Part shown: positions 28-64,000 of the stretch, in pieces
How the letters are laid out: each line of letters opens with the position of its first letter
How positions within the stretch are numbered: position 1 is the stretch's first letter
DNA from: a phage
Sequence record: PZ583741.1
Length of the DNA stretch: 64,000 nt
Direction: 5' to 3' (one strand)
Notes under the pieces: model-generated
What the model was told of the DNA's origin: nothing
The model's input: only the letters and a program-made list of their open reading frames with translations
The model's database searches: none
Program-made: the position numbers and the translations under genes

Positions 28-31
28 ATCA

Positions 32-2749: not shown

Positions 2750-2774
2750 TCATCATCACGTAAATGAATCTACA

Positions 2775-3215
2775 TCAATCCACATCAAAAGGCAAGCCAA
2801 AATAGGTCAACACTGCAATCTTTATCTGGTCGAGTCCACACGCCACCGCAGAGAATGCACCAGCGCTGGCGCTATCGTTGAGAAACGGTATCTGTCCTGG
2901 TTGCCATTTGCTAAGCGTTGAATCATGGCGCTTCAACTCTATCGTCGCTTTATGCCACCCACCCCCGGGCGTCAGGATTATCACATCAGACACCCCTGAC
3001 CTGACACCTTTCCTTGCGCGCGATGCAAGATGCTGCACTGAGTTGCTTTTGGTCTCCTGAGACGGATGGAACCACAGCACATCAGGAAACCGGTAATCCA
3101 TCCACCACTTGAACGCTATCAATTCGGAATCCTCAAGCGGACACTCGCCGCGGTAACCATCATCAAAAATTAATACCTTGTCACTCAGCTCATGCTGCTT
3201 GAATCGCTTTTTCAC
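2775..3215 (-). CDS. VRR-NUC domain nuclease
   Basis: 146 aa; D...IELKR PD-(D/E)XK core; homolog of B 52676..53095; overlaps helicase 3' end. Confidence 0.55.
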   Translation of the reverse strand: MKKRFKQHELSDKVLIFDDGYRGECPLEDSELIAFKWWMDYRFPDVLWFHPSQETKSNSVQHLASRARKGVRSGVSDVIILTPGGGWHKATIELKRHDSTLSKWQPGQIPFLNDSASAGAFSAVACGLDQIKIAVLTYFGLPFDVD

Positions 3216-5645: not shown

Positions 5646-5707
5646 TTTACGTTACCCTCATTCAGTGTTACGCTTAAAGCATACAAACAGTAACAGATGG
5701 AGTCAAC

Positions 5708-6658: not shown

Positions 6659-6661
6659 AAG

Positions 6662-6688
6662 AAACCCTCCAATCGGAGGGTTTTTGTT
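6662..6688. terminator. rho-independent terminator (ccctcc-aatc-ggaggg plus T-run), between convergent genes
   Basis: Hairpin and TTTTTGTT read directly. Confidence 0.6.
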
Positions 6689-6689
6689 A

Positions 6690-7094
6690 TCAGCGTTTCA
6701 TCTTGTCAATTTCATCGTCAATAATCTTTATTATCTCTCGCTTTGCATTCCTCCATGCATAAATGGCATCAAGCGAAGCTCTGTCTTTTGAATCACCGGT
6801 AGCTGTTGAATACAGGATTATGTCTCCCATCTTACAAAATGTATCTATGTAAACAGCCCTAAAAAGACCATCGCCGCAACTCCAGCACAAGCAATTATTT
6901 ATTTTCTTGCAATCATTACCAATGATTCCGGTGCTAAACAACTGAATCCAGCCAATAGGTTCACCAATGGAAATGTCATACTCATCACTATGACCACTAA
7001 CAGAGCACTCAAGACGGAACGTTCGATATTCATGCAGATTGAGACATAATGATCTGTAAATAAGGAATTTAGATCTTTTCTTAACGCTCATCAC
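6690..7094 (-). CDS. hypothetical Cys-rich protein
   Basis: 134 aa ORF, several Cys pairs; no family recognised. Confidence 0.35.
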   Translation of the reverse strand: MMSVKKRSKFLIYRSLCLNLHEYRTFRLECSVSGHSDEYDISIGEPIGWIQLFSTGIIGNDCKKINNCLCWSCGDGLFRAVYIDTFCKMGDIILYSTATGDSKDRASLDAIYAWRNAKREIIKIIDDEIDKMKR

Positions 7095-8683: not shown

Positions 8684-8997
8684 ACGCGCAAGAATTTACC
8701 ATGGATAACACCATGTTTCACCGTTAACACAGCACCCACCCTGTCAGCCTCAATTTTTAGCGCCCTCTGAAGTGACGCCATTGTCATCTGAAAACCTCGC
8801 TCTATGTCGTATGCGTAGCACCCATCTCTGCCACCAATCAAAATTGAAGTTGAATACCCGTTCTCAAAGTAAAACTGACACCCATCAGGAGCGGTAAGAT
8901 TATTTATCACGTCGTGAGCAAGCGATGTCGTAACAGGGAATATCGGAGCGCAACTCATACTCACCTCACTCAACTCGCTTAATGTGCAAAACTTCAT
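8668..8997 (-). CDS. hypothetical protein
   Basis: 109 aa ORF in minus-strand operon. Confidence 0.3.
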   Translation of the reverse strand: MKFCTLSELSEVSMSCAPIFPVTTSLAHDVINNLTAPDGCQFYFENGYSTSILIGGRDGCYAYDIERGFQMTMASLQRALKIEADRVGAVLTVKHGVIHGKFLRVWMVY

Positions 8998-9214
8998 CGA
9001 AATATGAGCACGTTCTGAATTTCATCCCAAAATCCTCACCAACCCTTCCGAGACACGCGCGAAATCTTTCAACAGAAAGCCCTTTATCTGCAATATCCTC
9101 ATAAGCAATTGAATTAACCTGGCCAACATCCATATGTTTTGCAACGCGATACACGAATTCCATCTTTGAACCATCACGATACATTTTGTTTCTCATAGTC
9201 ACCTCAATCCGCAT
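8966..9214 (-). CDS. hypothetical protein
   Basis: 82 aa ORF, first gene of minus-strand operon. Confidence 0.3.
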   Translation of the reverse strand: MRIEVTMRNKMYRDGSKMEFVYRVAKHMDVGQVNSIAYEDIADKGLSVERFRACLGRVGEDFGMKFRTCSYFDEVLHIKRVE

Positions 9215-9851
9215 TCCAACAGTAACTATAGATAAAAAATAAAATTAACGCAACGCAAAACAGGTCTAACCAGCAACAACAGCTACCACACTTAACAACT
9301 AGTCTGACCACCATCTCGTATCAGATATATGTGGATGGTGCCCGTCGTTTAATTTGTGCTCGATTTTTACCTAATTTACCGTATATTTATTGGTCAGTTT
9401 TTGCATAACTAATTGATTTATATGATTTACCGGTTTTACCGGAACTCTAAGGAGTATTTTCATCATTGAGAGTAGTAGTATATTAATTGGTCTAATTTTT
9501 AAATAACTCTAATAAAATCAATATATTAATATAAGAAAGTAACTTGCTTACTTATATAGGATTTACCGGGTAAAACCGGTAACTCCTCCGCATCCCGCGT
9601 CATTACTGGATTGATTTTTACCACCTGTAGGTAAATACAGTAGTTTTTAAGTCAGGATTGTTTTTGTAAGATGTTGATTACCGGTACTTTATTTGAAAAA
9701 CCGGGATTTACCGGGTTTTTGTTGTGTGATTAATAATTGCGCAATTGGTCATGTTTCAACAGAACACACTGATGCGACATCTGAAAATCATATTGACGTA
9801 GAATTACAACTGATGTAGATTGAACTCATCGAAACAAACGAGGGTGAAGAG
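9215..9851. promoter_or_regulatory. AT-rich divergent intergenic region with at least five (A/G)TTTACCGG(G)T repeats
   Basis: atttaccggttttaccgg, atttaccgggtaaaaccggtaa (palindromic), gattaccggt, ccgggatttaccgggttttt read directly; 640 bp without ORFs. Confidence 0.5.
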
Positions 9852-10037
9852 ATGAAAGAAGAAAGCACGTACAGCATTGACCAGATGAAGTTATTCAGCG
9901 ATATATGCATGGCATTGTCACAACAGGTTCCAAGCCTGCCTGCTGATATGCGCTCAAATGCCATCATTGATGCGGCAAACATGATTTGCGAGGCATATGC
10001 GATGACTGAAGATGAATATAAGGATTCGAAGAAATGA
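9852..10037 (+). CDS. hypothetical small protein
   Basis: 61 aa ORF starting the plus-strand operon. Confidence 0.35.
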   Translation: MKEESTYSIDQMKLFSDICMALSQQVPSLPADMRSNAIIDAANMICEAYAMTEDEYKDSKK

Positions 10038-10436
10038 CAGGCGCAGCATTCGAGCTTATCGCCAGTCTGGTTATCGCGGCATTCATTATCATCGCAGTGG
10101 CAGTTTATAAATCAGGATATAAGGAGTGACAGAATGAGCAGCTGGCATAATGAACACATCATGCAATGGTATCGTCGCCGCATTAAGACAATCATTAACT
10201 CTCACGAGGTGCAATAAATGGCAAAGACTATCTATCGTCGCGAGAAGCTGGAATAAGAACTCGGTCACGTTGGCGCGCAGAACTTCATGAGCAAGCAGGC
10301 ACGCAATGCAATGGAATCTATCCGCGTAAATCGCGTTGTGCGCGTGTTCAATGGCGAGGGTAAACGAAGAGTAATGGATGAGCTGATTATCGTATTTTGA
10401 CCTCGATTCAGCGCTCTTATTTTTAATGGTGATGAT

Positions 10437-10670
10437 ATGGCAAAAGTAAAAACATATGAGTTCTGGTTTGTGCAGAACAAAATTCATGCAAGCAAGATAA
10501 TCAAGCGAGCGCACTGGTGGAATAAGTGGCTAATCCTGTCAGGATGCATTGTGCTGGCAAAGTGCAAATTCAAAGCGATTGACATCACAGATGAGGATTC
10601 ACTCAAAATCGCAAAGATTGAGTTTGAAGAAGATGGCTATTACGAAGAAATTATGGGGGTTAGGGTATGA
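10437..10670 (+). CDS. hypothetical small protein
   Basis: 77 aa ORF. Confidence 0.35.
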   Translation: MAKVKTYEFWFVQNKIHASKIIKRAHWWNKWLILSGCIVLAKCKFKAIDITDEDSLKIAKIEFEEDGYYEEIMGVRV

Positions 10671-11068
10671 GTGAAGTTAAAACATACGCAGTGAATTGCA
10701 ATGACGCATGGCTAAACACCGAAGGTGATAACATCTCCGGGTCATACGTTAAGTACAAAGACCATCAGGAAGTGGTTGCCGCTATTGAGGCCAAGTGCGC
10801 GGCGCTAGCAGCGGAGAATGCGGCGCTTAAACAGTCGGAGAAGGAATTTAATAACTTCTGTCGTCAGGAGTACTACGGTTGGGAGGACAACTTCACGGAA
10901 ACCCCAGCCACCGATGATTTTCTGGTTGAAATTGAACGCAAAGCAATCCGCAAGTTCATTAACAGTATTGAACACATTCTTCGCGACAAGTTGTCACCGT
11001 ATGACACAGAAGAGATGCTTGAGGATATGCGTATTTTCCTGGAAGAGCAGAGTGGTGAGCAAAAATGA
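10667..11068 (+). CDS. hypothetical protein
   Basis: 133 aa ORF, start overlaps upstream stop (ATGA). Confidence 0.4.
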   Translation: MSEVKTYAVNCNDAWLNTEGDNISGSYVKYKDHQEVVAAIEAKCAALAAENAALKQSEKEFNNFCRQEYYGWEDNFTETPATDDFLVEIERKAIRKFINSIEHILRDKLSPYDTEEMLEDMRIFLEEQSGEQK

Positions 11069-11367
11069 CAATCACAAAACAACGTGTAGAAGAAATAATA
11101 TCGCGCATTGAAATGTATGGGCATGGTGCCGGGTATACCGCAGAAGAGGTTTATGACCTTGCTATACTGGCGCTGAATTTATCAAATATCGCAAACCTGA
11201 AGCGATACGAACTTGATATGGATGGTTGCGACTCGTGCGGTCAGGATTGTGGCGCTGACATGAGCGAAGACCCTGAAGGCGAATTTGTCATGTTCGACGA
11301 TGTTGTCAAGATGGTTCAGTTCGACACTACCAACCTGCAATTCGAAAGCCTGGCTAAAAGTGAATAG
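11065..11367 (+). CDS. hypothetical protein
   Basis: 100 aa ORF, overlapping start. Confidence 0.4.
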   Translation: MTITKQRVEEIISRIEMYGHGAGYTAEEVYDLAILALNLSNIANLKRYELDMDGCDSCGQDCGADMSEDPEGEFVMFDDVVKMVQFDTTNLQFESLAKSE

Positions 11368-11512
11368 CTACCCGTTCATATTAATTATCAGTGCGCTCTA
11401 TGTGTCGCACGCTTTAGTGGAGGCATACCAATGAACAACCACAAACGACGCCGATACACCACTGGCGCTAAAATCTTCCTTGCTGTTTATGTGCTGGCAC
11501 TTGTAGCAGCTG

Positions 11513-11710
11513 TTGCAGGAGTTGTGCATTATGTTTAACGATATCAGTGACGCAATGCAAAACATGTGGGAACGCTACTGGGACGGTATGATGACGTGTC
11601 ATTACATGATGGTGCAGCTCGGCAATCGCATTGAGGTTGTACCTGACAATGGTGTGCATGACATCAAGTACATGTGCTCTACGAGGGATTATGCTAATGC
11701 AAACAACTAA
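11513..11710 (+). CDS. hypothetical small protein
   Basis: 65 aa ORF. Confidence 0.3.
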   Translation: MQELCIMFNDISDAMQNMWERYWDGMMTCHYMMVQLGNRIEVVPDNGVHDIKYMCSTRDYANANN

Positions 11711-11870
11711 AGCCAAGGTTTGGCAACTCGCCAAGCAGCACGAATTGGACGATTTTATAGCGAAGGTTGCCAAAACATTCCCAGATGCGCTTGAAATCGT
11801 TCATGTGCAGACGCAAACAGAAAATGCATGGTGCTATGCTGGCAAGCGTGGTAATGATAGTGTACAATAA
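11691..11870 (+). CDS. hypothetical small protein
   Basis: ATG at 11691 preceded by gaggga; ORF-track start 11631 is probably too far upstream. Confidence 0.3.
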   Translation: MLMQTTKAKVWQLAKQHELDDFIAKVAKTFPDALEIVHVQTQTENAWCYAGKRGNDSVQ

Positions 11871-11914
11871 ACGCATAACCACCATTGCTTTCACTCATAT
11901 CATCACCCAACCTT

Positions 11915-11942
11915 TGACCCGCCTTGTGCGGGTTCTTTTTTG
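11915..11942 (+). terminator. rho-independent terminator (acccgcc-ttgt-gcgggt plus T-run)
   Basis: Read directly. Confidence 0.55.
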
Positions 11943-12018
11943 TCATTAACAGCATGGCGTAGAATCTGTTACAATATCGAATAACGGGAAAAAAGCGGAA
12001 TATTGATAGGGTTTATAT

Positions 12019-12435
12019 ATGGCTAAAAAGCTATTCAGTAAAGAAAATCAACCACAAAATAAACGTGGGAAAGACAAGCGTAAGTTGCTCGTTGAAGCTC
12101 TTGAGAGAAAGGGGTTTAGTGAGGAAAAGCTCTATGACGCCATCGTTGAGATGGCGATGATTGAGCGTGATACTGCAATGATGAAAGAGCTTATCGTTCG
12201 ATTCAGTCCGTTACCTAAGCCTGTCGCCCCTGTTTTTGAAGTTGATTTCCCTGATGACGGAACTCCGGTAGAGAAGATTGATGCTGTTATTCGTGGCATA
12301 GCTGCTGGTGTTATACCTGTGGACATTGGAAAGACATTTGCGGAGGTTATCAGGACTGGGCTTGATATTGCTGAAGTTACCGAACTCGCCGCGCGCCTTG
12401 AGCGACTGGAGAAATTACTGGCGCAGCAACAGTAA
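12019..12435 (+). CDS. putative terminase small subunit
   Basis: 138 aa, basic N-terminus, coiled-coil C-terminus, immediately upstream of large terminase; positional inference. Confidence 0.4.
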   Translation: MAKKLFSKENQPQNKRGKDKRKLLVEALERKGFSEEKLYDAIVEMAMIERDTAMMKELIVRFSPLPKPVAPVFEVDFPDDGTPVEKIDAVIRGIAAGVIPVDIGKTFAEVIRTGLDIAEVTELAARLERLEKLLAQQQ

Positions 12436-12534
12436 CTGATTTATAATAATTAATGCGGCTAGGGGGCACCCGAAAAGCGACTCATCACCGCCTGCCGCAT
12501 TCACTTCAATGATGCCCTGATGAGGAATCTATAT

Positions 12535-15054
12535 ATGGCACGCAAAAGACTGTCAGCACCAGCAATTGAAAAACTCGAAGAGATTATTGGCGATGGCGTG
12601 ATTGATACGCCTGAATCCGCGGTGTTCGGTGTTGTTAATACAGATAAGCAGATTGTTCGCAAACTAAAAATGACGCAAAGCGGAGTTGATGACGTTAGCG
12701 ACTCTGATATTAACGTTGATCACCTGATACCAGAAAAGCTGGAAAAGCTACTTTACCCCAAGCGAAATAAGATTGTGTTTGGCGGGCGCGGATGCTTAGC
12801 CATCGGCACAATGGTTAGGATGTTTGATGGTAGCCTAAAACGCGTAGAGGATATCGCTGTTGGCGATAAGGTTATGGGTCCAGACAGTAAACCACGAAAT
12901 GTTTTAAGCATCTGCCGTGGGTTTGATGACATGTATACGGTTCATCAAAAATATGCTGAGGACTACACTGTCAACTCAAGTCACATACTGTCATTACGAA
13001 AGATTCCATCTGCTATCAGTGACGAGACAAAAACACCGGATGGTAAAAGAATTTATCGTTATTACCCAAATGACCCTGAAATACTTAATATCGGTGTTTC
13101 AGAATATTTGTCGCGCGCAACTTCCACGAAGTTCCGTCATGTCTTTAAAGGGTGGCGAACAGGATGGGATTTTCAGGAACAAAGCGTTCCAATTGACCCG
13201 TACTTTCTTGGTTTATGGTTAGGTGATGGCTCATCTCGTAGTGTTGAAGTATGCACGCCTGATCCAGAGATAGTTGACTACCTTCACGGTGTGGCAAGCC
13301 AATATGGGATGCAGGTAAAGGTTCGCGACGATGATAGATGCCCTGTCTATGCGATAACTAATGGTCGAGCTGCTGGCATGGGGAAAAACACCAACCCTTT
13401 ACTAACTAAAATGCAGCAGCTTGGGGTGATTAATAATAAACACATACCTGACTGCTATATTAAAAACAGCAGACAGGTAAGACTTCAGATTCTGGCTGGG
13501 CTATTGGATACTGATTCGCATTACCACAAAGAAAAGAAAAGCTATTGTTTTACATCAATAAATAAAGATATAGCCTTCTCTTTGATGGATGTGGCAAGAT
13601 CACTTGGCTTCAAGTCAAGCATAATCAAAAAGACCGATGTCACCTTTGAGTATAAAGGTGAGAAAAGAATATACGAAAAGGATGTGTGGGAGGTGTTCGT
13701 TAGTGGTGAACTTCATACAATCCCATGCCGAGTAAAAAGGAAGATAGCAGAGAAAACCAAGTCAACCCGTGGAAAGATGACTGAGGTGTCATTGTCTTAT
13801 GCCGGGCATGGTGTATACGCTGGATTCACTCTTGATGGCGATCATCTTTTCTTGCTTGCTGATGGCACAGTTACACACAACAGCGGAAAAACAAGAACAG
13901 TAACTACAATACTTACGGAGCGTGCACGCTTTAAGCCTGACAGGATAGCTTGTTTCCGTGAGATTCAGCAGTCTATTGAGGATAGTTCGTATCAGGAACT
14001 GAAAGACGAGATTGACAGGAAGGGCGAGACAAAAGAGTTTCGCGTAATCAACAACGAAATAACACACAAGGTAACGAAAGCAAAGTTCCGCTTTAAAGGT
14101 CTGTATCGCAACCAGACGACCGTTAAAGGCTTTGCTGGCATTACAGTCGCTTGGGTTGAGGAGGCTGAAAACGTTAGCCAGACAAGCTGGGAAATCCTCA
14201 CTCCAACTGTTCGCGCTGATGGCTCTGAGATATGGGTGACATTCAACCCAAATAAGGAGCATGACCCCACATGGAAGACGTGGGTTGAGCCGTTTTATAG
14301 CAAACTGCGCTCAAGTGGCGGTATTTACGAAGACGAAGAAAACCTGATTATTGAATGTAACTATTCAGATAATCCGTGGTTTTGGGATACGCCACTACCC
14401 AGCCAAATGCAACGAATGAAAGAGACAGACTTCGACCGCTATCAATGGGTTTGGGGTGGTCGCTTTAACAAGAGGAATGACGAGCAGGTCTTTGGCGGCA
14501 AATGGCGCATTGATAACTTTGAGGTTAAACCTGAATGGCACGGCCCATACTTCGGGATGGACTTCGGGTTTTCCACTGATCCTACCGCAATGATTGAAGT
14601 TTACATCGAAGAACTACCAGGTGCACGGCGCAACATTTATATTAATCGCGAATATGGCAAGGTTGGCCTTGAGATTACCGATACACCAGCTGCGATGGAG
14701 CAATCATTCCCGATGGCTAAGCGCGCGCGATGGTATGCAGACTGCGCTCGACCGGAAACCATCAGCCACATCAAGCGTTCTGGCTTTGATATTCATCCAT
14801 GCACAAAATGGCCGGGAAGCGTTGAGGATGGCGTAACGTGGCTGCGCGGCTGCGACAGTATCATCATCCATGAGCGATGCAAGGAAATGCAGAATGAAGC
14901 GGCAATGTACAGCTATAAGGTTGATAAGCTGACCGGAAATGTACTCACGGATATTGTTGATGCATATAACCATTACTGGGATGCCGTTCGCTATGCGCTT
15001 AATGACCACATCGTCCAGCGCGGTAGCGGAATGCTAATCCGGCGCAGGAGATAA
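12535..15054 (+). CDS. terminase large subunit, intein-containing precursor
   Basis: Exteins give GGRG|SGKT Walker A, WVEEAE, VTFNPN, GMDFGF..DPTA, ADCARPE, NHYWDAVRYAL; ORF track starts at 12520, ATG at 12535 has a better RBS. Confidence 0.85.
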   Translation: MARKRLSAPAIEKLEEIIGDGVIDTPESAVFGVVNTDKQIVRKLKMTQSGVDDVSDSDINVDHLIPEKLEKLLYPKRNKIVFGGRGCLAIGTMVRMFDGSLKRVEDIAVGDKVMGPDSKPRNVLSICRGFDDMYTVHQKYAEDYTVNSSHILSLRKIPSAISDETKTPDGKRIYRYYPNDPEILNIGVSEYLSRATSTKFRHVFKGWRTGWDFQEQSVPIDPYFLGLWLGDGSSRSVEVCTPDPEIVDYLHGVASQYGMQVKVRDDDRCPVYAITNGRAAGMGKNTNPLLTKMQQLGVINNKHIPDCYIKNSRQVRLQILAGLLDTDSHYHKEKKSYCFTSINKDIAFSLMDVARSLGFKSSIIKKTDVTFEYKGEKRIYEKDVWEVFVSGELHTIPCRVKRKIAEKTKSTRGKMTEVSLSYAGHGVYAGFTLDGDHLFLLADGTVTHNSGKTRTVTTILTERARFKPDRIACFREIQQSIEDSSYQELKDEIDRKGETKEFRVINNEITHKVTKAKFRFKGLYRNQTTVKGFAGITVAWVEEAENVSQTSWEILTPTVRADGSEIWVTFNPNKEHDPTWKTWVEPFYSKLRSSGGIYEDEENLIIECNYSDNPWFWDTPLPSQMQRMKETDFDRYQWVWGGRFNKRNDEQVFGGKWRIDNFEVKPEWHGPYFGMDFGFSTDPTAMIEVYIEELPGARRNIYINREYGKVGLEITDTPAAMEQSFPMAKRARWYADCARPETISHIKRSGFDIHPCTKWPGSVEDGVTWLRGCDSIIIHERCKEMQNEAAMYSYKVDKLTGNVLTDIVDAYNHYWDAVRYALNDHIVQRGSGMLIRRRR
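12793..13881 (+). mobile_element. intein (363 aa) with LAGLIDADG homing endonuclease domain inserted in terminase Walker A
   Basis: Starts with Cys (tgc 12793), ends His-Asn (cac aac 13876-13881), +1 residue Ser; LGLWLGDGS and LAGLLDTDS motifs; flanks reconstitute GGRGSGKT. Confidence 0.8.
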
Positions 15055-15060
15055 AAATAA

Positions 15061-15088
15061 AGCCCTCATCTGAGGGCTACTTTCATTT
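15061..15088. terminator. hairpin agccctca-tc-tgagggct after terminase
   Basis: Read directly; weak U-run. Confidence 0.4.
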
Positions 15089-15235
15089 AATCAATGCTCG
15101 TCGACCAAGTTCAGCAATCCATTCCGCCGCATCCTCTATTTTGTTGAACTCATAAAGATGCTTGCCGTCTTCCATGACATAAAACAGAATGCGACCAAAT
15201 TTATTTTTCTTTGCGCTAAATTTAACATCTTTCAT
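15083..15235 (-). CDS. hypothetical small protein (50 aa)
   Basis: Short minus-strand ORF between terminators; not in ORF track. Confidence 0.2.
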   Translation of the reverse strand: MKDVKFSAKKNKFGRILFYVMEDGKHLYEFNKIEDAAEWIAELGRRALIK

Positions 15236-15387
15236 ATTTTCACTCCTTCCGTTTCATGAGTTCAATCTACATCACAAGCATATCCACGTCAACATTTATT
15301 GTTGTTGATAAATCTGCATCACCACACTTGACCAATCTACACCGAGCGCATAGTATAATCTACATCAGGCTTACCGGAGATATCACT

Positions 15388-15594
15388 ATGCGCAGCTATG
15401 CAGGATTTACACAGGAGGAAAAAGAACAGGTTTATTCACTGGCGCGGGCTGGCGTGCCTGATGAGGTGATTTGCTGTCGGTATGATATCGACGAGGACTT
15501 CCTGCTGCGTGTTATTGATGACGTTTTCGTTAACCTGCAAGAGAAGCGAGGATATAAGGGTATCTGCTGCAAGAATGATTTTTTGAGAGGGTGA
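15388..15594 (+). CDS. hypothetical small protein
   Basis: ATG at 15388 after ggaga; track ORF 15256 trimmed. Confidence 0.35.
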   Translation: MRSYAGFTQEEKEQVYSLARAGVPDEVICCRYDIDEDFLLRVIDDVFVNLQEKRGYKGICCKNDFLRG

Positions 15595-15756
15595 TGTGGT
15601 GATTATTGAAAAAACAAATGAATGCCACAGTCTGTATATAAATACAGAACTAGTCATCAATTTAAGGCAATGTGACGACTGGGTTCAGCTTGACAAACAC
15701 CAAGCCGCGCAACTAATCGAAGTCCTGCAACGCTGGGTTAATGGTGAGGAGATTGA

Positions 15757-15966
15757 ATGATGAGCGTTTATTTTTATTGCGGTCACATTGAGCGACAAGG
15801 AAGCGTAGCGAGCGTTGGTAGTTTCTGCGGATTATCAATTGGACCTGATGCTGTTAGCGCATATGAAGATGTCATGAGAGCGCAGGTGAAGGAAATCCAG
15901 TCAATCACTGAGAGCGGCGCTTTTAATCTTTCTGTTATTTTTGATAAATTCGAAAAGGTGGAGTGA
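15757..15966 (+). CDS. hypothetical small protein
   Basis: 69 aa ORF overlapping next start. Confidence 0.35.
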   Translation: MMSVYFYCGHIERQGSVASVGSFCGLSIGPDAVSAYEDVMRAQVKEIQSITESGAFNLSVIFDKFEKVE

Positions 15967-16442
15967 TGATTGATTGGGTATCTTTATTTGATTATGATGG
16001 AGCGTCTTTGGTGTGGAAGCATGGAAGGGGAGGTGTTTCCGTTGGCAGCATTGCGGGAACGGTTAATGCTGGCGGGTACATTCAGCTCAAAGTTAACGGA
16101 AGATTTTATTATGCCCACAGAATTATATGGGAAATGCATAACGGTCCTATACCGGAAGGTATGGAGATTGACCACATAAATCATAACAAGGCGGACAACA
16201 GGATTGAGAATTTGCGTCTTGTTCGACACAAAACTAACACTAAAAACGCGCCTAAATACAAAAATAACACCAGCGGCGTTACTGGTGTGAGTTGGTATAA
16301 GAGAGATAAAAAATGGCTAGCACAAATAATGGTTGATGGCAATTACATACGTCTTGGTCTTTTTGATAATTTCGAAGCAGCAGTCGACGTGAGAAAGGAA
16401 GCAGAACTAAGGTATGGATTTCACAAGAACCACGGCGCTTGA
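15963..16442 (+). CDS. HNH homing endonuclease with AP2-like domain
   Basis: 159 aa; HRIIWEMHNGPIPEGMEIDHINHNKADNRIENLRLV, near-identical block in B ORF 22049..22561. Confidence 0.75.
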   Translation: MMIDWVSLFDYDGASLVWKHGRGGVSVGSIAGTVNAGGYIQLKVNGRFYYAHRIIWEMHNGPIPEGMEIDHINHNKADNRIENLRLVRHKTNTKNAPKYKNNTSGVTGVSWYKRDKKWLAQIMVDGNYIRLGLFDNFEAAVDVRKEAELRYGFHKNHGA

Positions 16443-16470
16443 TGATATAATGACCCTTGCAGAAATGTGA

Positions 16471-17764
<1,294 letters not shown>

Positions 17765-17778
<14 letters not shown>

Positions 17779-41398: not shown

Positions 41399-42370
41399 TT
41401 AGTAGAAGTTTGGAATGAATGGAAGTGCCATTGATATATTTGTGTCGAAAGGGAACTGAGCGCCTGATTGCGTCGAGTAGTTACCAATTACAGTACCTGG
41501 CACTGCTCTAACGTTACCACCAGACATGCAAATGCCCTTGTATCGCAAGTTGTTATACCCTCCAGTAACTCTAGTCGTAGCGCCACATCTAAGAAGCGGG
41601 AAGAATCCACCATTTATTGACTGATATACATTGCTTATTTGTATAAATCCACTAAGTACAAATGGTCGCCTAACGCTGGAGAAAACAATCTGACCAGAGC
41701 TATTTGACATTGTAAGACCAGGTCCAGCTACTGGAGGTTCATTCCTGAATATCACCAACTGAACGTAAGTGCTTGCCGCCACATCATCTATACCACCATA
41801 GTTTACATCACGGCACCATATCGTACTCCCATCACTCTCCAGAGACACGTTTGGATTATCCCACTTACCGAATGGTATTCCACTGACTGGCAGTGCTGAT
41901 GATCCGTTAACCTGAATACCACCAACCCATGCCGCTGACATTAGCCGTGAGTTGCTTGATATTGCCAAGAAGTCAGTTGAGTTTTCAACTAGTATTCCTG
42001 GGCTTGATGAAGATGAGGCTGGTAGAATTTCAAAACAATTACCCGCAAAGTCAATTATTCGACCATTGGCTCCGTTAAAGTTACTAAGTGTTATCCTGCC
42101 AGTGCCGTCATTTACCTTTTGGAATCCGTTCATGTAATAAACTTCTGGTATAACATCGTAAGCGTCAACGTGGACCGCCTTCGTTGGTAGGCAGAAAGCC
42201 GTAGAGCCAGGAGACATTGTCAATCTAAAATCCCACGAACTTGCTGGGGTTGAAAGTCCATTGGTATTTATTGATCCAGTCACAGCAGGTGCCCTTAACC
42301 CTGCCGTAATTTCCATCGCTGGCCTTCCGTCATTAAGGTCAATCAATATACCATGAGGCATTATTTCCAC
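41399..42370 (-). CDS. hypothetical Gly/Ser/Asn-rich protein (possible fibre-like or exclusion-associated)
   Basis: 323 aa; second gene of a minus-strand two-gene cassette. Confidence 0.4.
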
Positions 42371-42606
42371 TCCTTGCTGCCATGATCTGCAACAGAGCCG
42401 CCGTAACCGCCGCCGACCTTGCTTTCAATCCCAGCGTAACGAACATCAACCTCGCCAGCCGGAACAACTACGCCACCCTTCCATTTAGCTACGCATACGC
42501 CGTTAGCTTGAGTTGCACACCAGCCATCCGGTCGAGGACCTGAAGAACAACCTACCATCATGACTGCTGCTGCGGCGATGATTGAAAGTTTGATTAAGTT
42601 AGTCAT
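42361..42606 (-). CDS. small lipoprotein (possible superinfection-exclusion protein)
   Basis: [22 protein letters not shown] signal peptide with lipobox VGC; minus-strand cassette upstream. Confidence 0.5.
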
Positions 42607-42672
42607 TTCTAATTCCTTAGTAAGTTGTTTCGTTTCGATGTGGTAATAGTATCGCATCCATGAGATCAGTAT

Positions 42673-42690
42673 TTAGCAATTAGTGCTATT
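42673..42690 (-). promoter_or_regulatory. B cassette motif on minus strand (aatagcactaattgctaa)
   Basis: Reverse complement read directly; TACTAT box and catcgaaacgaaac leader follow. Confidence 0.5.
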
Positions 42691-43339
42691 TCTTTTCGAG
42701 TAACATCTTGATGTCAATGCCGAGATTATTTTCAATCAATCCAGTCAGTGCATCCGTCTTTTCTTTAAGGGCAAAACACTGAGCTTCATACTTAAATCTT
42801 TCCTCCATCTCGTCAGAGCGACTAACCCAGCACTGGCGAGCCTCGCAAGCCAGCATGTCGAGTTTTTCATCGGTATTCTTATCCATGAGTAAGATCTCAT
42901 TTATTCTTTGCTCTGCAACAATGCGCTGACTAAGGTGTGCATTTTGCGCATTAGCCACACCAAGCATCATGCGCGCTTCTTTTAACTCATCAATGCTTAC
43001 CATCTGACTGATTACTTCTGCTTGTTTTTTAACTAACGACTCAAGCTCATGAAGTCTTTTAACTACCGCGTATCGAAGTGCGGGGCTGTAACCCATAACC
43101 AATGTTTCAGTTAAATCGCGGTTAAGAAGAACTTCAGAAACAAAGCCGCGATAGTCTATAAGTGCTTGATAATCCTCATGACCCAAATTTGGGTTATGCC
43201 CCGACGCTAGGATGTCGATTATCATATCCTCACAGTCACGAATAACGTGACCATGTCTTTTCCCAGTTAATTCCGCAATTTCTTTCGTGCTCATCATGGT
43301 TTTCGGCTGTTCTTTGTACAATTTAATCTTCATTTTCAT
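42686..43339 (-). CDS. Rha-family-like phage regulatory protein (putative)
   Basis: N-terminal MSTKEIAELTGKRHGHVIRDCE resembles Rha regulators; start at M34 of track ORF. Confidence 0.45.
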   Translation of the reverse strand: MKMKIKLYKEQPKTMMSTKEIAELTGKRHGHVIRDCEDMIIDILASGHNPNLGHEDYQALIDYRGFVSEVLLNRDLTETLVMGYSPALRYAVVKRLHELESLVKKQAEVISQMVSIDELKEARMMLGVANAQNAHLSQRIVAEQRINEILLMDKNTDEKLDMLACEARQCWVSRSDEMEERFKYEAQCFALKEKTDALTGLIENNLGIDIKMLLEKK

Positions 43340-43431
43340 CTCTCTTTGGTTTTGTGATACGAAATTTTCGTAGCGCAAGCGGCACCATTTCCGCCATGCG
43401 CACAAATATACCCAAATATTGCGTCTTGTCT

Positions 43432-43449
43432 TTAGCAAGACGTGCTATT
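43432..43449 (-). promoter_or_regulatory. B cassette motif on minus strand (aatagcacgtcttgctaa)
   Basis: TATATT box downstream on minus strand. Confidence 0.45.
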
Positions 43450-50679: not shown

Positions 50680-52674
50680 ATGTTGCCTATCGAAAAGCTG
50701 GTTGCAAACTTCGATAAAGAAAGAATCAAGCAGATTCAGAAAGACTATCAGTTTGGTGAGATAACCCCTTACGAGTTTCAGTGCGTGACATTTGATGCAA
50801 TCGGAAAGGCTATTGGGAAGTACGAAGCACCATTTATCGCAGACCTTTCCGTATCGGCTGGTAAGACAATCATCCTGGCTATGATTGGAAAGCGTATGGA
50901 TCAGCTTGGTCTTCCTTATATGGTTCTATCTCGACAGTCAGAGATAATCAGCCAGAACTCAGAAGAGCTTCGTAATTTCGGCATCCGTAACAGCGTCTAT
51001 TGCGCTGGCCTTAACGTTAAATCGGTTTACTATCCAACCATAGTTGCCAGCGAGGGTACGGCTGCTAACGGATTGTTTAAGGGGCTTGGTGACTATGTTC
51101 CGGCAGTTATCGCTATCGATGAATGCCACATGCTTGATGCTATGGATATCGTTGAAGCCGAGGAGAACGAGGAAACTTTTGAGCAAATGAGCACAAAGAA
51201 GGGCGAGATGGTTCTCAAGGATGGCGTTAACACTGGATTAATTGGTACAGGTCGCGCGCAGTACACGCTAATCATCACTGAGATGAAGCGTCGTTGTCGC
51301 GAAAAGTATGGGCGGGAGCTTCGTATATTCGGTCTTACTGGCAGCCCATATCGCAACAACGACCACATAGTCGTTAGTAATCCTAATATCCGTGGTTTCT
51401 GGCGCAAAACAGTTATTCAGGTACCGACCAATTACCTGGTTGATTTGGGGTTCGTTGTACCAACAGTTTACGGTGAAGTTGGTGATTTGGGCTATGACCT
51501 TGCTGAGTTTACGCCAGATGGCTCTGACGGGATTAAAGACTTCACGAAGAAAGACTTAAACGCAATGGAGGAGAAGATTCACCAAAACCAATCTATGACA
51601 CAAAAGATTATGCAATTTGCAGCCAAGTTCATGGAGACAAGGAACGCGGCACTTGTTACCTGTTCTGGTAAGCGTCATTGCGAGGAAGCAGCAGCAGCGC
51701 TTCCTGAGGGTGTGACCTGGGCTATAGTAACTGACTCTACTGGTGAGAAAAAGCGTCGTGAGATTCTTTCTGACGCAGCTGAAGGTAAGTATAAATTCAT
51801 CTTTCAGATTGGTTGCCTCACAACCGGCGTGAACGTCCCGCCATGGGACACGTCAATAATTCTTCGCAAGGTTGGTAGCATCACGTTATTGATTCAGCTT
51901 TTGGGTCGAGGCATGCGAATTCTTAAGAAGAAGCATAAGGAAATGGGAATGGTTAAGGATGATCACGTGGTGCTGGACTTCGCTGGTACTCTTGATGACA
52001 TGGCAGAATTGTACTTTGACCCAATCATAGAGGAAGTGCAGGACCAGAAATTTAAGTCTTCACGCAAAGGCGGCGATGAGCCAAGAGTGTGCCCCGCATG
52101 CTCTTATGAGAATTCTCCTTTTGCCCGTCGTTGCAATAACGTAATTGATGGAAAGCGTTGTGAGCATTTTTTTACATTTCGCTTGTGTGAAGATATAGAG
52201 GACCCGCAGACAAAATCTATTATTAAGAAAGGTTGTGGTGAGAAGAATGATATTGCCGCTAAAAACTGTAGGTGCTGTGGCGAGATGCTAATAGACCCGA
52301 ACGCAAAGTTATCTGGGAAAATGTATCGTAAAGGCGACTGGTTGAGAGTCTACGACTTTAAGATTGGATTAACAAAGAATCAATCAGGGATTGTTGCCTC
52401 ATACGAGGTCATGGCTCATAGTGGGGATAGGTTCCGGGCCTATGAGACGTTTTTTCCAGAGTCAGACCATCGCGTTTGCTCTGTAAAATGGAAAGCATTT
52501 TGCTCGAGTCACATAGAGAACAGGACTGAGGCTTTTAGAATTGGCAGATTGCGTAATGCTAAGATGATTATGACTAATGCTCACCTTTTCCGTGCGCCAT
52601 TAAGGATTACACACCGTAAGAACCAGAAGTCTCAAGATATTATCGCAAACAAATCATTTACTATGGAAGACTGA
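50680..52674 (+). CDS. SF2 DNA helicase with C-terminal zinc ribbons
   Basis: 664 aa; Walker A SAGKT, DExH-like IDECH, LLGRGMR, CPACS/CRCCG; homolog of A 3190..5124. Confidence 0.8.
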   Translation: MLPIEKLVANFDKERIKQIQKDYQFGEITPYEFQCVTFDAIGKAIGKYEAPFIADLSVSAGKTIILAMIGKRMDQLGLPYMVLSRQSEIISQNSEELRNFGIRNSVYCAGLNVKSVYYPTIVASEGTAANGLFKGLGDYVPAVIAIDECHMLDAMDIVEAEENEETFEQMSTKKGEMVLKDGVNTGLIGTGRAQYTLIITEMKRRCREKYGRELRIFGLTGSPYRNNDHIVVSNPNIRGFWRKTVIQVPTNYLVDLGFVVPTVYGEVGDLGYDLAEFTPDGSDGIKDFTKKDLNAMEEKIHQNQSMTQKIMQFAAKFMETRNAALVTCSGKRHCEEAAAALPEGVTWAIVTDSTGEKKRREILSDAAEGKYKFIFQIGCLTTGVNVPPWDTSIILRKVGSITLLIQLLGRGMRILKKKHKEMGMVKDDHVVLDFAGTLDDMAELYFDPIIEEVQDQKFKSSRKGGDEPRVCPACSYENSPFARRCNNVIDGKRCEHFFTFRLCEDIEDPQTKSIIKKGCGEKNDIAAKNCRCCGEMLIDPNAKLSGKMYRKGDWLRVYDFKIGLTKNQSGIVASYEVMAHSGDRFRAYETFFPESDHRVCSVKWKAFCSSHIENRTEAFRIGRLRNAKMIMTNAHLFRAPLRITHRKNQKSQDIIANKSFTMED

Positions 52675-52675
52675 C

Positions 52676-53095
52676 ATGCAAATTACAGACAAAGAAGATT
52701 ACATTGAGTTTTACCCAGGCCCGGTTAAGTCATGCCCGAAAGAGGATGACGAACAAATCTTTTGCTCTGATTGGGTTAAGTATAACTACCAGGAGATGGT
52801 ATTTTTCCACTGCGTAAATGAGGGGAAGAAAACCATTGGACAGGCAAGAAAGGACCAGGCTAAAGGGCTCCTTAAAGGCGTGTCAGACTGCATGTTTCTT
52901 ATTCCAGAGTCTCTGCGAGGCAAATACCCTTTCGGAGCTATAGAGCTGAAGAGGGCTGGCAAAACTCAGGCTAGCCCAGTCAGTGACGAGCAGAAGTCTT
53001 TCCTTAAAAGCGTGAGAGAATCAGGGGGTTTCGCTGGGGTTGCCTACGGTAGAGATGGTTTTCTGGCAGCGTTTAGAGAAATGATTTCAAAATAG
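52676..53095 (+). CDS. VRR-NUC domain nuclease
   Basis: 139 aa; D...IELKR core; homolog of A 2775..3215. Confidence 0.55.
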   Translation: MQITDKEDYIEFYPGPVKSCPKEDDEQIFCSDWVKYNYQEMVFFHCVNEGKKTIGQARKDQAKGLLKGVSDCMFLIPESLRGKYPFGAIELKRAGKTQASPVSDEQKSFLKSVRESGGFAGVAYGRDGFLAAFREMISK

Positions 53096-54568: not shown

Positions 54569-54651
54569 CTAGCCTAATACTAGTAGGATCGTCACCACTG
54601 TTTAGCTTTACTATCTTATACTTTATCTCAATGAATTAAGGAACTTATATA

Positions 54652-55782
54652 ATGGCAACTGCAAAAATCACCAACGAGCAACTGCGCGAAGAGCTGGAAA
54701 ATGGCATGACCAACAAGGCAATCGCAGAGAAGTATGGAATGAACATTCGCAACGTTGAATTGCGTCGCAGTAAGCTGGCAAAATCAGGCGAGCTTCATGG
54801 AAACCCTGGTATCAAGAAGTTAGTCCCTGACGGTTATATGGTCAAAGGAACCTCAACAATGATTGACGCGGCGGGTAATGAAAAGCTTCGCTGGGTTAAA
54901 ACCTCTGTAGATAATGAGCGCCTTGAGGTTTTAATGGAGCAAGCTAGAGAGGCATTTTGTTCTGAGTTGCCAAAAGCAGATGCGGTCAGCCACTCAGGCA
55001 ACGAAGTTAACTCTGAATTAATGACTCTTTACCCTATTTTCGATATCCATATCGGCATGATGGCGCATCGCCATGAATCTGGTGAGAATTATGACACTAA
55101 CACGGCAGAGAAATTAATGGAATCATATTTCGACCATGCAATTTCTGTATCACCTGCGTCAGAGAAAGCCGTTGTTTTAGTTGGCGGCGACTTCCTTCAC
55201 TCTGACGGACTGGAGGCAGTAACTCCAGCAAGTGGTCACTGCCTTGATCAAGATAGTCGATATGCTAAGTTAGTTTATGTTGCAATTCGCTCAATTCGTG
55301 GTGCCATAGAGAAGATGCTTAAGAAGCATAAGAATGTCGAGATTCAGATTATAGAGGGAAATCATGACCAAAGCGGCATGATCTGGCTTCGCGCTGCAAT
55401 GGCTGCATTTTATGAAAACGAGAATCGCGTGTTTGTTGATACCAGTCCAGCAATCATGCACAAGACGCGATTTGGCTCAACGTTACTTGGTTACACACAC
55501 GGTCACACGATGAAGAAAGCCGAGGGTCGACTTGCGGCAATGGCGACTGACTACCGTAAAGACTTTGGTGAATGTGAATTTGTTTACTGCCACTCAGGAC
55601 ATTTCCATCATGCAACTGTTACAGAGTGCACACTTGGTATTGACGAGGTTCACCCAGCACTGGCCAGTAAGGACGCATATGCCGCACGTGGAGGTTGGCG
55701 CTCATACCGTCAAGCGGCTGCGATAGTTTACCACAAGAATTTTGGCGAGGTTGGTCGCCATATTTACCGCCCAGGCATGTAA
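54652..55782 (+). CDS. calcineurin-like metallophosphoesterase with N-terminal HTH-like domain
   Basis: 376 aa; DIHIG, GGDFLHSD, EGNHD motifs; N-terminal MTNKAIAEKYGMNIRNV. Confidence 0.5.
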   Translation: MATAKITNEQLREELENGMTNKAIAEKYGMNIRNVELRRSKLAKSGELHGNPGIKKLVPDGYMVKGTSTMIDAAGNEKLRWVKTSVDNERLEVLMEQAREAFCSELPKADAVSHSGNEVNSELMTLYPIFDIHIGMMAHRHESGENYDTNTAEKLMESYFDHAISVSPASEKAVVLVGGDFLHSDGLEAVTPASGHCLDQDSRYAKLVYVAIRSIRGAIEKMLKKHKNVEIQIIEGNHDQSGMIWLRAAMAAFYENENRVFVDTSPAIMHKTRFGSTLLGYTHGHTMKKAEGRLAAMATDYRKDFGECEFVYCHSGHFHHATVTECTLGIDEVHPALASKDAYAARGGWRSYRQAAAIVYHKNFGEVGRHIYRPGM

Positions 55783-55800
55783 ATAGCACATTTTGTTAAT
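55783..55800 (+). promoter_or_regulatory. degenerate B cassette motif (atagcacattttgttaat)
   Basis: Read directly; weaker match. Confidence 0.3.
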
Positions 55801-55856
55801 AAAGCCTCAAAGGATTGAGGCAAAATGAATAAACGATAACGAGATTAGGAGTTATA

Positions 55857-56330
55857 ATGATTTACGTATTTGATATTGACGGAACTATAGCTAATAATGA
55901 GCATAGAAATCACCTTTTACCATCCAGTGACCTTCACTTGACTTCAAGTTGGAAGTATTACAATAAAGCCTGTTCTGGAGACTCACCAATAATTCCAATG
56001 ATAAACATGATGAATGCGTTAGCGGAGTTATCGCAAGTTTGCATCATGACCTCCAGAAGCGATGAAGTTGAATGGAGAACACTTGAGTGGCTTCAGGATA
56101 ATGAGGTTGAGTATGATTCGATATACATGAGAAATCGACATGACAACCGAAAAGATTACAAAATAAAAGAGGAATGGCTTAATAAAATCAGTGGTGGCGA
56201 CAAAAGCAATGTGGTTATTTTTGAAGATAACCCACAAGTAATTAAGCACCTAAGAAGTTGCGGATACACCGTTATGGCTGTATGTGAATATGAAGACCTA
56301 CCTAAAGACTGCGAATCTCACGGAGAATGA
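55857..56330 (+). CDS. HAD-superfamily phosphatase-like protein
   Basis: 157 aa; N-terminal FDIDGT motif. Confidence 0.45.
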   Translation: MIYVFDIDGTIANNEHRNHLLPSSDLHLTSSWKYYNKACSGDSPIIPMINMMNALAELSQVCIMTSRSDEVEWRTLEWLQDNEVEYDSIYMRNRHDNRKDYKIKEEWLNKISGGDKSNVVIFEDNPQVIKHLRSCGYTVMAVCEYEDLPKDCESHGE

Positions 56331-56887
56331 AAATGACTAAATTATTTATCCTTAATGGCCCAGCTGGAGTAGGCAAGGACACTATAGCGGATATCATGGT
56401 TGAGACTGGTGTCGCCAAAGAAAAGGTATCATTCAAGTCACCAATGTTTAACGTTGCAAAAGGAATGCTATCAAGCGATGAATTTGATGGATTCATCAAG
56501 AATTACGACAATAGAGGCTATAAGGAATCACCTCATGGATTTATTGGCGGTATGACAGTTCGTGAATTTATGATTTGGATTAGCGAGTCTGTAATGAAGC
56601 CAGTCTTTGGTGATGATGTTTTCGGTAAAAGGCTAGCCCAGTCACTTGGTGATGGTTGCTACATTTGCGCTGACGGTGGATTTGCTAGCGAGATTGAGCC
56701 ACTGATCGACGCTGGTGTTAATGTAACGTTAATCAGATTGCATAGGGCAGGGTACACATTTGATGGCGATAGTCGCTCATACATTCACGGGGTGTGCGCA
56801 AGAGAAATTGATGTTCGTGTTGTTGATTGTGATATTGATGGAACATCAGCATTGGTAAGGCACGTAATAAATAGCACGAATTGCTAA
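56327..56887 (+). CDS. P-loop kinase (dNMP kinase-like)
   Basis: 186 aa; LFILNGPAGVGKDTIAD P-loop near N-terminus. Confidence 0.45.
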   Translation: MKMTKLFILNGPAGVGKDTIADIMVETGVAKEKVSFKSPMFNVAKGMLSSDEFDGFIKNYDNRGYKESPHGFIGGMTVREFMIWISESVMKPVFGDDVFGKRLAQSLGDGCYICADGGFASEIEPLIDAGVNVTLIRLHRAGYTFDGDSRSYIHGVCAREIDVRVVDCDIDGTSALVRHVINSTNC

Positions 56888-56889: not shown

Positions 56890-56955
56890 ATAATAATAAA
56901 AACTTAGTTATCATTAACACATCGAAACGAGATGAAACAAAAGAGGAAGAACAAA

Positions 56956-57132
56956 ATGACTAAAATGATTTATTGCACCAAAAACAACTCCAAGACGCTG
57001 CCATTTACAGTTAACCAGCCGTACAATGCAGAGTATCAAGGTGACGGATACTACAAGATTTATGGCGACGATATGACGTGGATTTTAGCGCCGATTGATG
57101 GTTCGCTGGTTGAATTTATTATCGCAGACTAG
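56956..57132 (+). CDS. hypothetical small protein
   Basis: ATG 56956 after aagaggaag. Confidence 0.35.
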   Translation: MTKMIYCTKNNSKTLPFTVNQPYNAEYQGDGYYKIYGDDMTWILAPIDGSLVEFIIAD

Positions 57133-57156: not shown

Positions 57157-57186
57157 GTGGGGGGCCTTTTGGCTCCCCTTTTTTAT
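57157..57186 (+). terminator. rho-independent terminator (ggggggcc-tttt-ggctcccc plus T-run)
   Basis: Read directly. Confidence 0.6.
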
Positions 57187-57263
57187 GCTTCTTTTCCGAG
57201 CGGTGCTAATGTATCATTCTTTTACTAACTTAAACATTGACAAATACACAAATGGAGGATCAC

Positions 57264-63742: not shown

Positions 63743-63931
63743 ATGTCTAAGCGCATCACTAAAGAACTTAAAGTGCTGAACAAAGAAAACGTAATCACCA
63801 TCCTGACAATGTTTGGCTACAACGAAGAATCTGCCATTGCAAAGGTTGAATCTGGTTACGATGTTGCGGTACGAAGCATGCCGGAAGCAACCTCAAAAGG
63901 TATCGCCGACTTCCTGGCTACATGTTACTAA
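63743..63931 (+). CDS. hypothetical small protein
   Basis: 62 aa; its last 58 nt are the start of the 127-bp repeat shared with 17652.. Confidence 0.4.
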   Translation: MSKRITKELKVLNKENVITILTMFGYNEESAIAKVESGYDVAVRSMPEATSKGIADFLATCY

Positions 63932-64000
63932 GTTATCTTACAAGGCATCTCGTGGGGTGCCTCAGTAAGACAACCGGAGATAGAGCATGAAAACCAAAAT
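63874..64000. repeat. 127-bp exact copy of 17652..17778 (terminal overlap of circular genome B)
   Basis: Base-by-base identity; period 46,222 bp; repeat ends exactly at the window end. Confidence 0.85.

Follow-up and report, generated by a model that had tools for sequence, protein, structure and literature searches.

What does a phage protein do that joins a helix-turn-helix (HTH) to a metallophosphoesterase (MPE), and how is it related to the phosphatase and kinase genes that follow it? This question is raised by a 64,000-nucleotide stretch of phage DNA (sequence record PZ583741.1), here called the window, in which three open reading frames (ORFs), genes 1 to 3, occupy positions 54652-56887 on the same strand. 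The phage carrying them is, judged from its DNA, a T1-like siphovirus, a coliphage of the Drexlerviridae; over 3.5 kb around the three genes, DNA identity was 97% to vB_EcoS_UALMA_PCEc3, 95.6% to SU57, and 91% to ACG-M12. A preliminary description had placed the three ORFs correctly, and all of them were found to be preceded by good ribosome-binding sites. Its domain calls were also right: motifs, PHROG and Pfam matches, and the predicted fold indicate a HAD phosphatase for gene 2, a P-loop kinase for gene 3, and for gene 1 a calcineurin-like phosphoesterase preceded by a predicted HTH. The ORFs are not chance ones, since gene 1 has 742 close database relatives and its family comprises 4,687 clusters at 50% identity. 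By analogy with other phage systems, we tentatively propose, with slightly less than even confidence, that gene 1 encodes a nuclease acting on DNA in replication, recombination, and the salvage of deoxynucleoside monophosphates (dNMPs).

Gene 1, a predicted HTH-metallophosphoesterase

Gene 1 (54652..55782, + strand; 376 amino acids) was assigned to phrog_704, with ST16 of phage T1 as its ortholog, from its ORF, the PHROG match, and an AlphaFold model. Its ribosome-binding site, read from the sequence as AAGGA (54638..54642, + strand), lies 9 nt ahead of the ATG at 54652. The MPE catalytic domain spans residues ~120-376 (55009..55779, + strand) and contains all five MPE motifs, namely DxH (D131-x-H133), GDxxH (G179-D180-x-x-H183), GNHD (G236-N237-H238-D239), H..H (H283/H285), and GHxH (G316-H317-x-H319). 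The motifs were invariant in an alignment of 28 close homologs, and D131, H133, D180, N237, H238, H283, and H319 were invariant in 36 diverse homologs with 32-58% identity. Because the full motif set is invariant among homologs that are 32-98% identical, the predicted enzyme is probably active and not a degenerate scaffold. Motif II, previously read as GDxxD, is GDFLH in the actual sequence (GDxxH); it is followed by a family-specific conserved insert, TPxSGHxLDxDxR (residues 191-203), and a DAYA..GG(W/Y)R segment is conserved near the C-terminus. The PPP signature (GDxHG, GDxVDRG, GNHE) was not found in gene 1, where motif II reads GGDFLHSDG and has no arginine. Given GDxxH, GNHD, and the missing GDxVDRG arginine, the phosphodiesterase/nuclease branch fits better than the protein-phosphatase branch.

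Gene 1 and its relatives have diverged too far for the Pfam Metallophos model PF00149, which remained below threshold on gene 1 (E = 0.04; 14.8 bits compared to a cut-off of 21.5) and matched 6 of 36 family members at E ≤ 0.01; for the assignment as an MPE, we therefore rely on the motifs, the PHROG match, and the predicted fold. The match to phrog_704, which is annotated as 'DNA repair exonuclease', covers the full length of the protein with E = 2.6e-152. A first AlphaFold model built from the 28 close homologs had a predicted local distance difference test score (pLDDT) of 69.5 and gave weak fold matches; it was replaced by a model from diverse homologs with a pLDDT of 86 and a predicted template modeling score (pTM) of 0.74. 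This model consists of a three-helix HTH at residues 8-44, a β-hairpin and helix at residues 62-104, and the MPE sandwich from residue ~120 onwards. Foldseek returned 114 PDB matches at E ≤ 0.001; the best 50 of these 114 were MPE-fold proteins, and E-values to MPE-fold proteins ranged from 1e-7 to 1e-5. Viral matches in BFVD were uncharacterized or automatically labeled, for example as 'DNA polymerase II small subunit'. Foldseek with the modeled structure thus confirms the MPE fold, without distinguishing between its subfamilies.

Sequence searches of solved structures with gene 1 singly and with the 36-sequence profile gave only marginal matches to PdeM/'Nuclease MPE' and to HTH proteins. 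PdeM, encoded in the bacterial Lhr-MPE-ligase repair cluster (PDB 6nvo), is a small MPE nuclease that works without a Rad50 partner, and it was the only MPE sequence match in PDB and NCBIfam, located around the GNHD motif. The matches were marginal (E ~1 in PDB; 18.9 bits for TIGR04123 compared to a cut-off of 150), and PdeM comprises ~215 amino acids without an HTH.

The N-terminus of gene 1 is predicted to be an HTH of the LuxR/sigma-70-region-4 type, a putative DNA-binding module (residues ~8-44; 54673..54783, + strand), based on predicted helices and on Pfam matches of homologs. In the AlphaFold model, this region forms three helices (residues 8-16, 21-28, and 32-44) with pLDDT values of 84-92. 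The homolog P0109, which is 65% identical to gene 1, carries PF08281 (Sigma70_r4_2), and Pfam HTH families (Sigma70_r4_2, GerE, HTH_23, and others) match many distant homologs. Gene 1 itself gave weak FixJ/TtrR matches (E = 0.06), and the 36-sequence profile matched GerE with E = 0.08. Nearly all of 150 top cluster representatives retain an N-terminal extension of corresponding length; some family members, for example proteins of 311-320 amino acids, are without this region. Furthermore, conservation in the 36-sequence alignment is much stronger at the catalytic residues than in the HTH.

The joining of HTH and MPE had been taken for an unusual fusion, but it turned out to be the norm of a very large phage family, phrog_704. 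In an exhaustive HMMER search, which yielded the 4,687 clusters, almost all of the 150 best had a length of 360-480 amino acids. By tblastn, the family was detected in 2,018 of 50,697 phage records (~4%), with phage hosts including Escherichia, Klebsiella, Salmonella, Vibrio, Campylobacter, and Rhodobacter. Prophages of numerous Proteobacteria carry HTH-MPE proteins as well; among 5,426 complete E. coli genomes, 35 contain one, which PGAP labels 'hypothetical protein'. With the 'DNA repair exonuclease' of phage UALMA_PCEc3, the gene 1 protein shares 99.5% identity; all three genes are already public in GenBank at 97-99.5% identity, and their families are seen in thousands of phages. T1 ST16 belongs to the same family with the same architecture and shows no difference of substance. 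Proteins of T1-type phages are 58-59% identical to gene 1 over the whole protein, and ST16 occupies the same genome position, with helicase and VRR-NUC-like genes ahead of it and the lysis genes behind. Members of phrog_704 are labeled 'DNA repair exonuclease', 'phosphoesterase', or often 'hypothetical protein', the first of these names being a remote-homology prediction.

The HAD phosphatase and kinase genes and their linkage to gene 1

Gene 2 (55857..56330, + strand; 157 amino acids) is predicted to encode a stand-alone HAD 3'-phosphatase of the PseT/Pnkp type, as indicated by PF25109, a profile search, and hhalign. The HAD nucleophile motif FDIDGT (F-D6-I-D8-G-T) is present, and PF25109 (HAD_PNKP) matched with E = 6e-18 and 65.8 bits compared to a cut-off of 27.6. 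When the family profile was compared with PDB, Pnkp1 was found with E = 2e-17 and the phosphatase domain of T4 PNKP with 3e-11 and 9e-10. Gene 2 aligns with T4 PseT/Pnkp and Capnocytophaga Pnkp1 over the whole phosphatase domain and keeps DxDGT, SGR, RKD..KEE, and DD; in contrast to the T4 enzyme, it stands alone and has no fused 5'-kinase domain. With hhalign, the phosphatase half of a T4-like PseT reached a probability of 99.4%; T5 Dmp, considered as the closest relative, reached 75% over the N-terminal 66 columns only and was classed as a distant relative instead.

Gene 3 (56333..56887, + strand; 184 amino acids) encodes a predicted dNMP-kinase-like P-loop protein, which according to phrog_139 and hhalign is a homolog of the N-terminal part of the T5 dNMP kinase Dnk. 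The Walker A motif is GPAGVGKDT, and phrog_139 ('dNMP kinase') matched with E = 9e-42. Comparison of the gene 3 profile with T5 Dnk gave a probability of 96% and E = 3.6e-9 over 70 columns comprising the P-loop and the next ~60 residues, a putative NMP-binding segment. Both proteins share a GxxGxGKDT P-loop and the following SF-x-P-x-F...R..KE segment; however, Dnk has 250 amino acids, only the N-terminal 70 residues align, and the C-terminal half is unaligned. No Pfam or NCBIfam model exceeded its threshold on gene 3, and Pfam, NCBIfam, and PDB gave generic P-loop kinase matches only. The start codon is more probably the second ATG at 56333 than that at 56327 (186 amino acids), because GGAG lies 7 nt upstream of it, the homologs have 184 amino acids, and SU57 is annotated likewise. 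The start is a few bases from the gene 2 stop codon, which a start at 56327 would overlap.

With the PseT kinase domain, hhalign aligned gene 3 over the 24-residue P-loop only, with a probability of 71%. A polynucleotide kinase-phosphatase split over genes 2 and 3 was therefore rejected: a kinase domain is absent from gene 2, and gene 3 resembles a dNMP kinase. Hence, the earlier suggestion of nucleic-acid end processing holds for the HAD protein, which is of the PseT type, but not for the kinase, which is T5 dNMP-kinase-like and has only the P-loop in common with polynucleotide kinase.

Related loci were gathered with a 10-sequence alignment, which provided 65 viral loci with enough flanking sequence and 43 prophage loci; they are not phylogenetically independent, and locus counts are descriptive. 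The order MPE-HAD-kinase was observed in 21 of the 65 viral loci, including lineages with an MPE that is only 41-46% identical; the phages with this order include Webervirus-like ones, with an MPE of 65% identity, and a 44-kb group, with one of 45-46%. Among the 43 prophage loci, 7 (from alpha-, beta-, and gammaproteobacteria) had a kinase homolog no more than five genes away from the MPE, and none of the 43 had a HAD homolog near it. Genes 2 and 3 are a fixed pair that travels together; the linkage of the MPE is recurrent, stronger for the kinase than for the HAD protein, and not obligatory.

In the window, the three genes are probably co-transcribed, since the hairpin in the gap between genes 1 and 2, GCCTCAAAGGATTGAGGC (55804..55821, not assigned to a strand), has no T-run on the + strand and gene 3 starts close to the gene 2 stop codon. 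Without a T-run at this stem-loop, transcription is likely to read through into gene 2. The T1 genome has an annotated terminator at the equivalent place.

Other phages show the genes apart. In T1, the homologs of genes 2 and 3 are ST64 and ST62 (41% and 43% identity), located ~36 kb from ST16. Jerseyvirus SE2 has the MPE gene by itself between tail genes, next to a methylase, and Rhodobacter phage RcRios likewise has it alone, after the lysis genes. In temperate mEp021-like coliphages, it lies between an O-like initiator and a DnaB-like helicase, with cI upstream and NinB downstream. The term module, used in the preliminary description, is thus supported by the gene order in 21 of the 65 viral loci and the nearby kinase in 7 of the 43 prophages, but not by T1, SE2, and the mEp021-like phages.

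The mEp021-type slot corresponds roughly to that of lambda P and was seen in the IMG/VR prophage L046 (2404-10856) and in mEp021, mEp010, mEp013, mEp044, mEp515, and mEp554. An HNH homing endonuclease is often inserted just upstream of the MPE in these phages; the genome paper on the mEp021 group does not mention the HTH-MPE gene. HNH homing endonucleases have also repeatedly inserted in or beside the HAD-kinase pair: in T1, the HNH endonuclease ST63 is inserted between ST64 and ST62 (T1 locus 4948-6534), and ACG-M12-type phages have an extra HNH gene there (ACG-M12 and ECH1 records). A link between the MPE and a DNA methyltransferase was also considered; the two are neighbors in T1, SE2, RcRios, and Webervirus-like loci, but no such gene is present between VRR-NUC and the MPE in the phage studied here, and the link was rejected as a general rule. 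Rhizobiales prophages (L094 7951-8607, L120, L108 7371-8246, L123 7644-8978) carry a second type of P-loop protein (GRRNTGKST) near the MPE, together with HD-type motif proteins (one with a sub-threshold Pfam HD_4 match) and a DUF7768 protein. Pfam analysis of recurrent prophage neighbors identified DUF7768, an HD domain, a trypsin-like peptidase, and little else. These surroundings hint at a nucleotide-metabolism cluster around the MPE in alphaproteobacterial prophages.

Possible functions of the three proteins

The proposal of a nuclease tethered to DNA is based on the replication, recombination, and nucleotide contexts of gene 1, its full catalytic center, its HTH, and the dNMP kinase as its most frequent conserved partner. 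In T1-like phages, gene 1 is located downstream of primase, helicase, and VRR-NUC genes. The protein would be a metal-dependent phosphodiesterase whose own N-terminal HTH tethers it to DNA, and it would cut or trim DNA during phage replication and recombination, acting on intermediates, the host chromosome, or both. Gene 3 would turn the released dNMPs into deoxynucleoside diphosphates for phage DNA synthesis, and gene 2 would strip 3'-phosphates that block exonucleases, polymerases, or ligase. We thereby infer that DNA is the substrate, that the products feed the kinase, and that the three proteins cooperate. The trio may be the T1-group counterpart of gp46/47, gp1, and PseT of T4 and of A1 (with A2), Dnk, and Dmp of T5.

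Mre11/SbcD-type enzymes act in phage recombination, and gp46/47 of T4 also functions in host-DNA breakdown; together with gp1, it represents an MPE nuclease whose products feed phage DNA synthesis, and A1 with Dnk in T5 is a second such case. T5 possesses a HAD dNMP phosphatase (Dmp), a dNMP kinase (Dnk), and an MPE, and thus the same three enzyme classes as found here, but its genes do not form a contiguous trio. Its A1 and A2 proteins provide a phage MPE enzyme and a DNA-binding function, which would be fused in gene 1; profile comparison of A2 with the gene 1 family was insignificant, and homology to A2 was rejected. A1, a predicted metallophosphatase, is necessary and sufficient for host DNA degradation, and T5 discards the nucleosides (bioRxiv 10.64898/2026.04.02.716235), whereas T1-type phages re-use them (PMC11447400).

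Several observations weigh against a nuclease function. Mre11/SbcD shares with gene 1 the MPE fold and the motif forms GDxxH and GNHD, and archaeal and Thermotoga Mre11 were the top Foldseek matches (E ~2e-7, TM score 0.40-0.47, 10-13% identity). However, Rv0805, GpdQ, PolD-DP1, Vps29, and LpxH followed within one order of magnitude; with Rv0805, a cyclic nucleoside monophosphate (cNMP) phosphodiesterase, GpdQ, and others so near the Mre11 score, fold similarity of the model does not discriminate between them. The hhalign probability of the 36-sequence alignment against T5 D12 (SbcD) was 0.1%, with the single-sequence template limiting sensitivity. A Rad50/SbcC-type ATPase was not seen among the window genes checked or in the T1 annotation, and the Mre11 capping domain is absent from the AlphaFold model, in which the protein ends with the MPE core; gene 1 has a predicted N-terminal HTH instead. 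Membership in the Mre11/SbcD group was rejected for these three reasons, profile similarity, partner ATPase, and capping domain. Clear SbcD/Mre11 homology, which according to the preliminary description would have refuted its reading, was thus not found, and the similarity is confined to the superfamily level.

Homology to T5 A1 was likewise rejected (hhalign probability 11% over 20 columns around NHD; BLASTP E = 0.26), as was homology to the T5 NinI-like phosphatase (probability 1%). The three genes are, moreover, separable, as in T1, Jerseyvirus SE2, and mEp021-like phages, and MPE nucleases leave 3'-OH ends and so create no need for a 3'-phosphatase. In the literature, we found no experimental characterization of the gene 1 family and no member with demonstrated nuclease activity. 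Finally, the copies in temperate phages argue against wholesale destruction of the host chromosome as a general role.

A more far-reaching version assumes that the HTH-MPE is the enzyme by which T1-type phages degrade the host chromosome, a single-polypeptide counterpart of T5 A1 and A2; we consider this rather unlikely. Together with genes 2 and 3, it would form a compact cassette turning host DNA into phage DNA precursors, and the copies in temperate phages would be a tamer form used for replication or recombination. T1 mutants with a defect in host DNA breakdown are better transducers. Both T1 and TLS break down host DNA and recycle its nucleotides; according to the 2024 re-annotation of TLS, the gene for this had not been identified (PMC11447400).

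Four other explanations were weighed; compared with a DNA nuclease, each fits the identity of the kinase, the HTH, the gene contexts, or the motifs less well. The PseT/Pnkp clade of gene 2 and the three adjacent, probably co-transcribed genes would suit an end-healing module, in which the MPE opens 2',3'-cyclic phosphates or trims ends, the HAD protein removes 3'-phosphates, and the P-loop protein phosphorylates 5'-OH ends, so that host ligase or RtcB seals breaks made by host anticodon or other defense nucleases; the Pnkp of Clostridium thermocellum uses an MPE domain for end healing. We nevertheless judge such a module to be clearly unlikely: gene 3 matches the T5 dNMP kinase over 70 residues (96%) and the PseT kinase over the P-loop of 24 residues (71%), no ligase is listed in the T1 annotation, the MPE is distributed independently of the HAD protein, and an RNA-repair enzyme would not be expected to carry an HTH. 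Regulation of phage promoters, for example lysis or late ones, or of host promoters by the HTH, with the MPE sensing or turning over a ligand, would agree with the LuxR/sigma-70-region-4 type of the HTH, with the location just upstream of the lysis cassette in T1-like phages, and with records that label homologs as MarR-family or winged-helix proteins. Such a transcription factor appears very unlikely, however, as the catalytic residues are far more conserved than the HTH, some members of 311-320 amino acids have no N-terminal region, and the position relative to the lysis genes is not kept outside the Drexlerviridae.

The preliminary description had also considered a phosphatase directed at host signaling or defense nucleotides. 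The MPE would then hydrolyze cyclic (oligo)nucleotide immune signals or alarm nucleotides, for example from host DNA degradation, and the HAD protein and kinase would reshape nucleotide pools. The class III cNMP phosphodiesterase Rv0805 and GpdQ are indeed among the top fold matches, and a bacterial defense system pairs a calcineurin-type enzyme with a HAD protein acting on nucleotides, so that both classes do act together on nucleotides (bioRxiv 10.64898/2026.01.15.699771). The suggestion found no support here: PADLOC models did not match any of the three genes at E ≤ 0.1, and the contexts are those of replication, recombination, and nucleotide metabolism. An anti-defense role would furthermore leave the conserved HTH unexplained; temperate phages carry the gene in the replication module, it occurs in >2,000 phages regardless of host defense repertoire, and the searches run did not reveal any resemblance to known enzymes directed against CBASS, Pycsar, or Thoeris. 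We regard this role as about as improbable as that of a transcription factor. Least probable of all, and in our view hardly to be expected, is a Ser/Thr/Tyr protein phosphatase of the lambda NinI (lambda-PP) kind acting on host proteins. Some GenBank homologs are labeled 'serine/threonine protein phosphatase' and lambda-PP belongs to the same superfamily, but motif II has no GDxVDRG arginine, the low hhalign probability with the T5 NinI-like phosphatase (1%) counts against it as well, and there was no PPP-family structure among the top fold matches listed.

Genome context and biological significance

In the window, primase and transcriptional regulator genes on the - strand are followed by helicase, VRR-NUC nuclease, and seven small ORFs, then by genes 1, 2, and 3, a small ORF, a strong terminator, and the genes for holin, endolysin, and spanin. 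The small ORF (56932..57132, + strand; phrog_4788) is the last before the terminator and conserved in related loci. The terminator-like element (57159..57188, + strand) consists of a hairpin with an 8-bp stem, 7 G-C pairs, and the T-run TTTTTT, and it probably closes the three-gene transcription unit ahead of the lysis cassette.

The window is composite. Bases 1-17651 match another Drexlerviridae-type phage (Salmonella phage Segz_1, 91%), and the phage bearing genes 1 to 3 begins exactly at 17652; the join looks like record concatenation or a chimeric assembly. A 127-bp direct repeat, 100% identical, is found at 17652-17778 and 63874-64000, reaching the window end; the unit length of the second phage is therefore 46,222 bp, and its genome restarts at 63874, by terminal redundancy, a circular-assembly overlap, or a concatemer. 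The first phage fragment contains a second helicase and VRR-NUC pair (2829-5124, - strand), which shares 41% and 36% identity with that at 50680-53095; homologs of the MPE, HAD, or kinase genes were not found within this fragment of the window. Additionally, an Ant-like anti-repressor (phrog_8235, E = 2e-79) and a 323-amino acid membrane protein (phrog_1265, 'moron/host takeover') are encoded at 41399-43438 (- strand), between tail genes and recE/erf/ssb, in a type of phage usually regarded as virulent.

Some public records carry doubtful-looking host labels (PP134917.1, MG065688.1, MG065681.1). The record 'Pseudomonas phage PsgS01F' is identical to E. coli phage UALMA_PCEc3 in length (44,679 bp) and match statistics, and the genomes filed as 'Campylobacter phages' A110b and A139 are those of T1-like coliphages.

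Among phage proteins whose catalytic center is intact, the HTH-MPE is one of the more widespread, and many T1-like, Klebsiella, and Salmonella phages encode it. It is a reasonable candidate for the gene by which T1 and TLS degrade host DNA. If it proved to be a nuclease of replication or recombination instead, this assignment would replace the unsupported label 'DNA repair exonuclease' in thousands of records.

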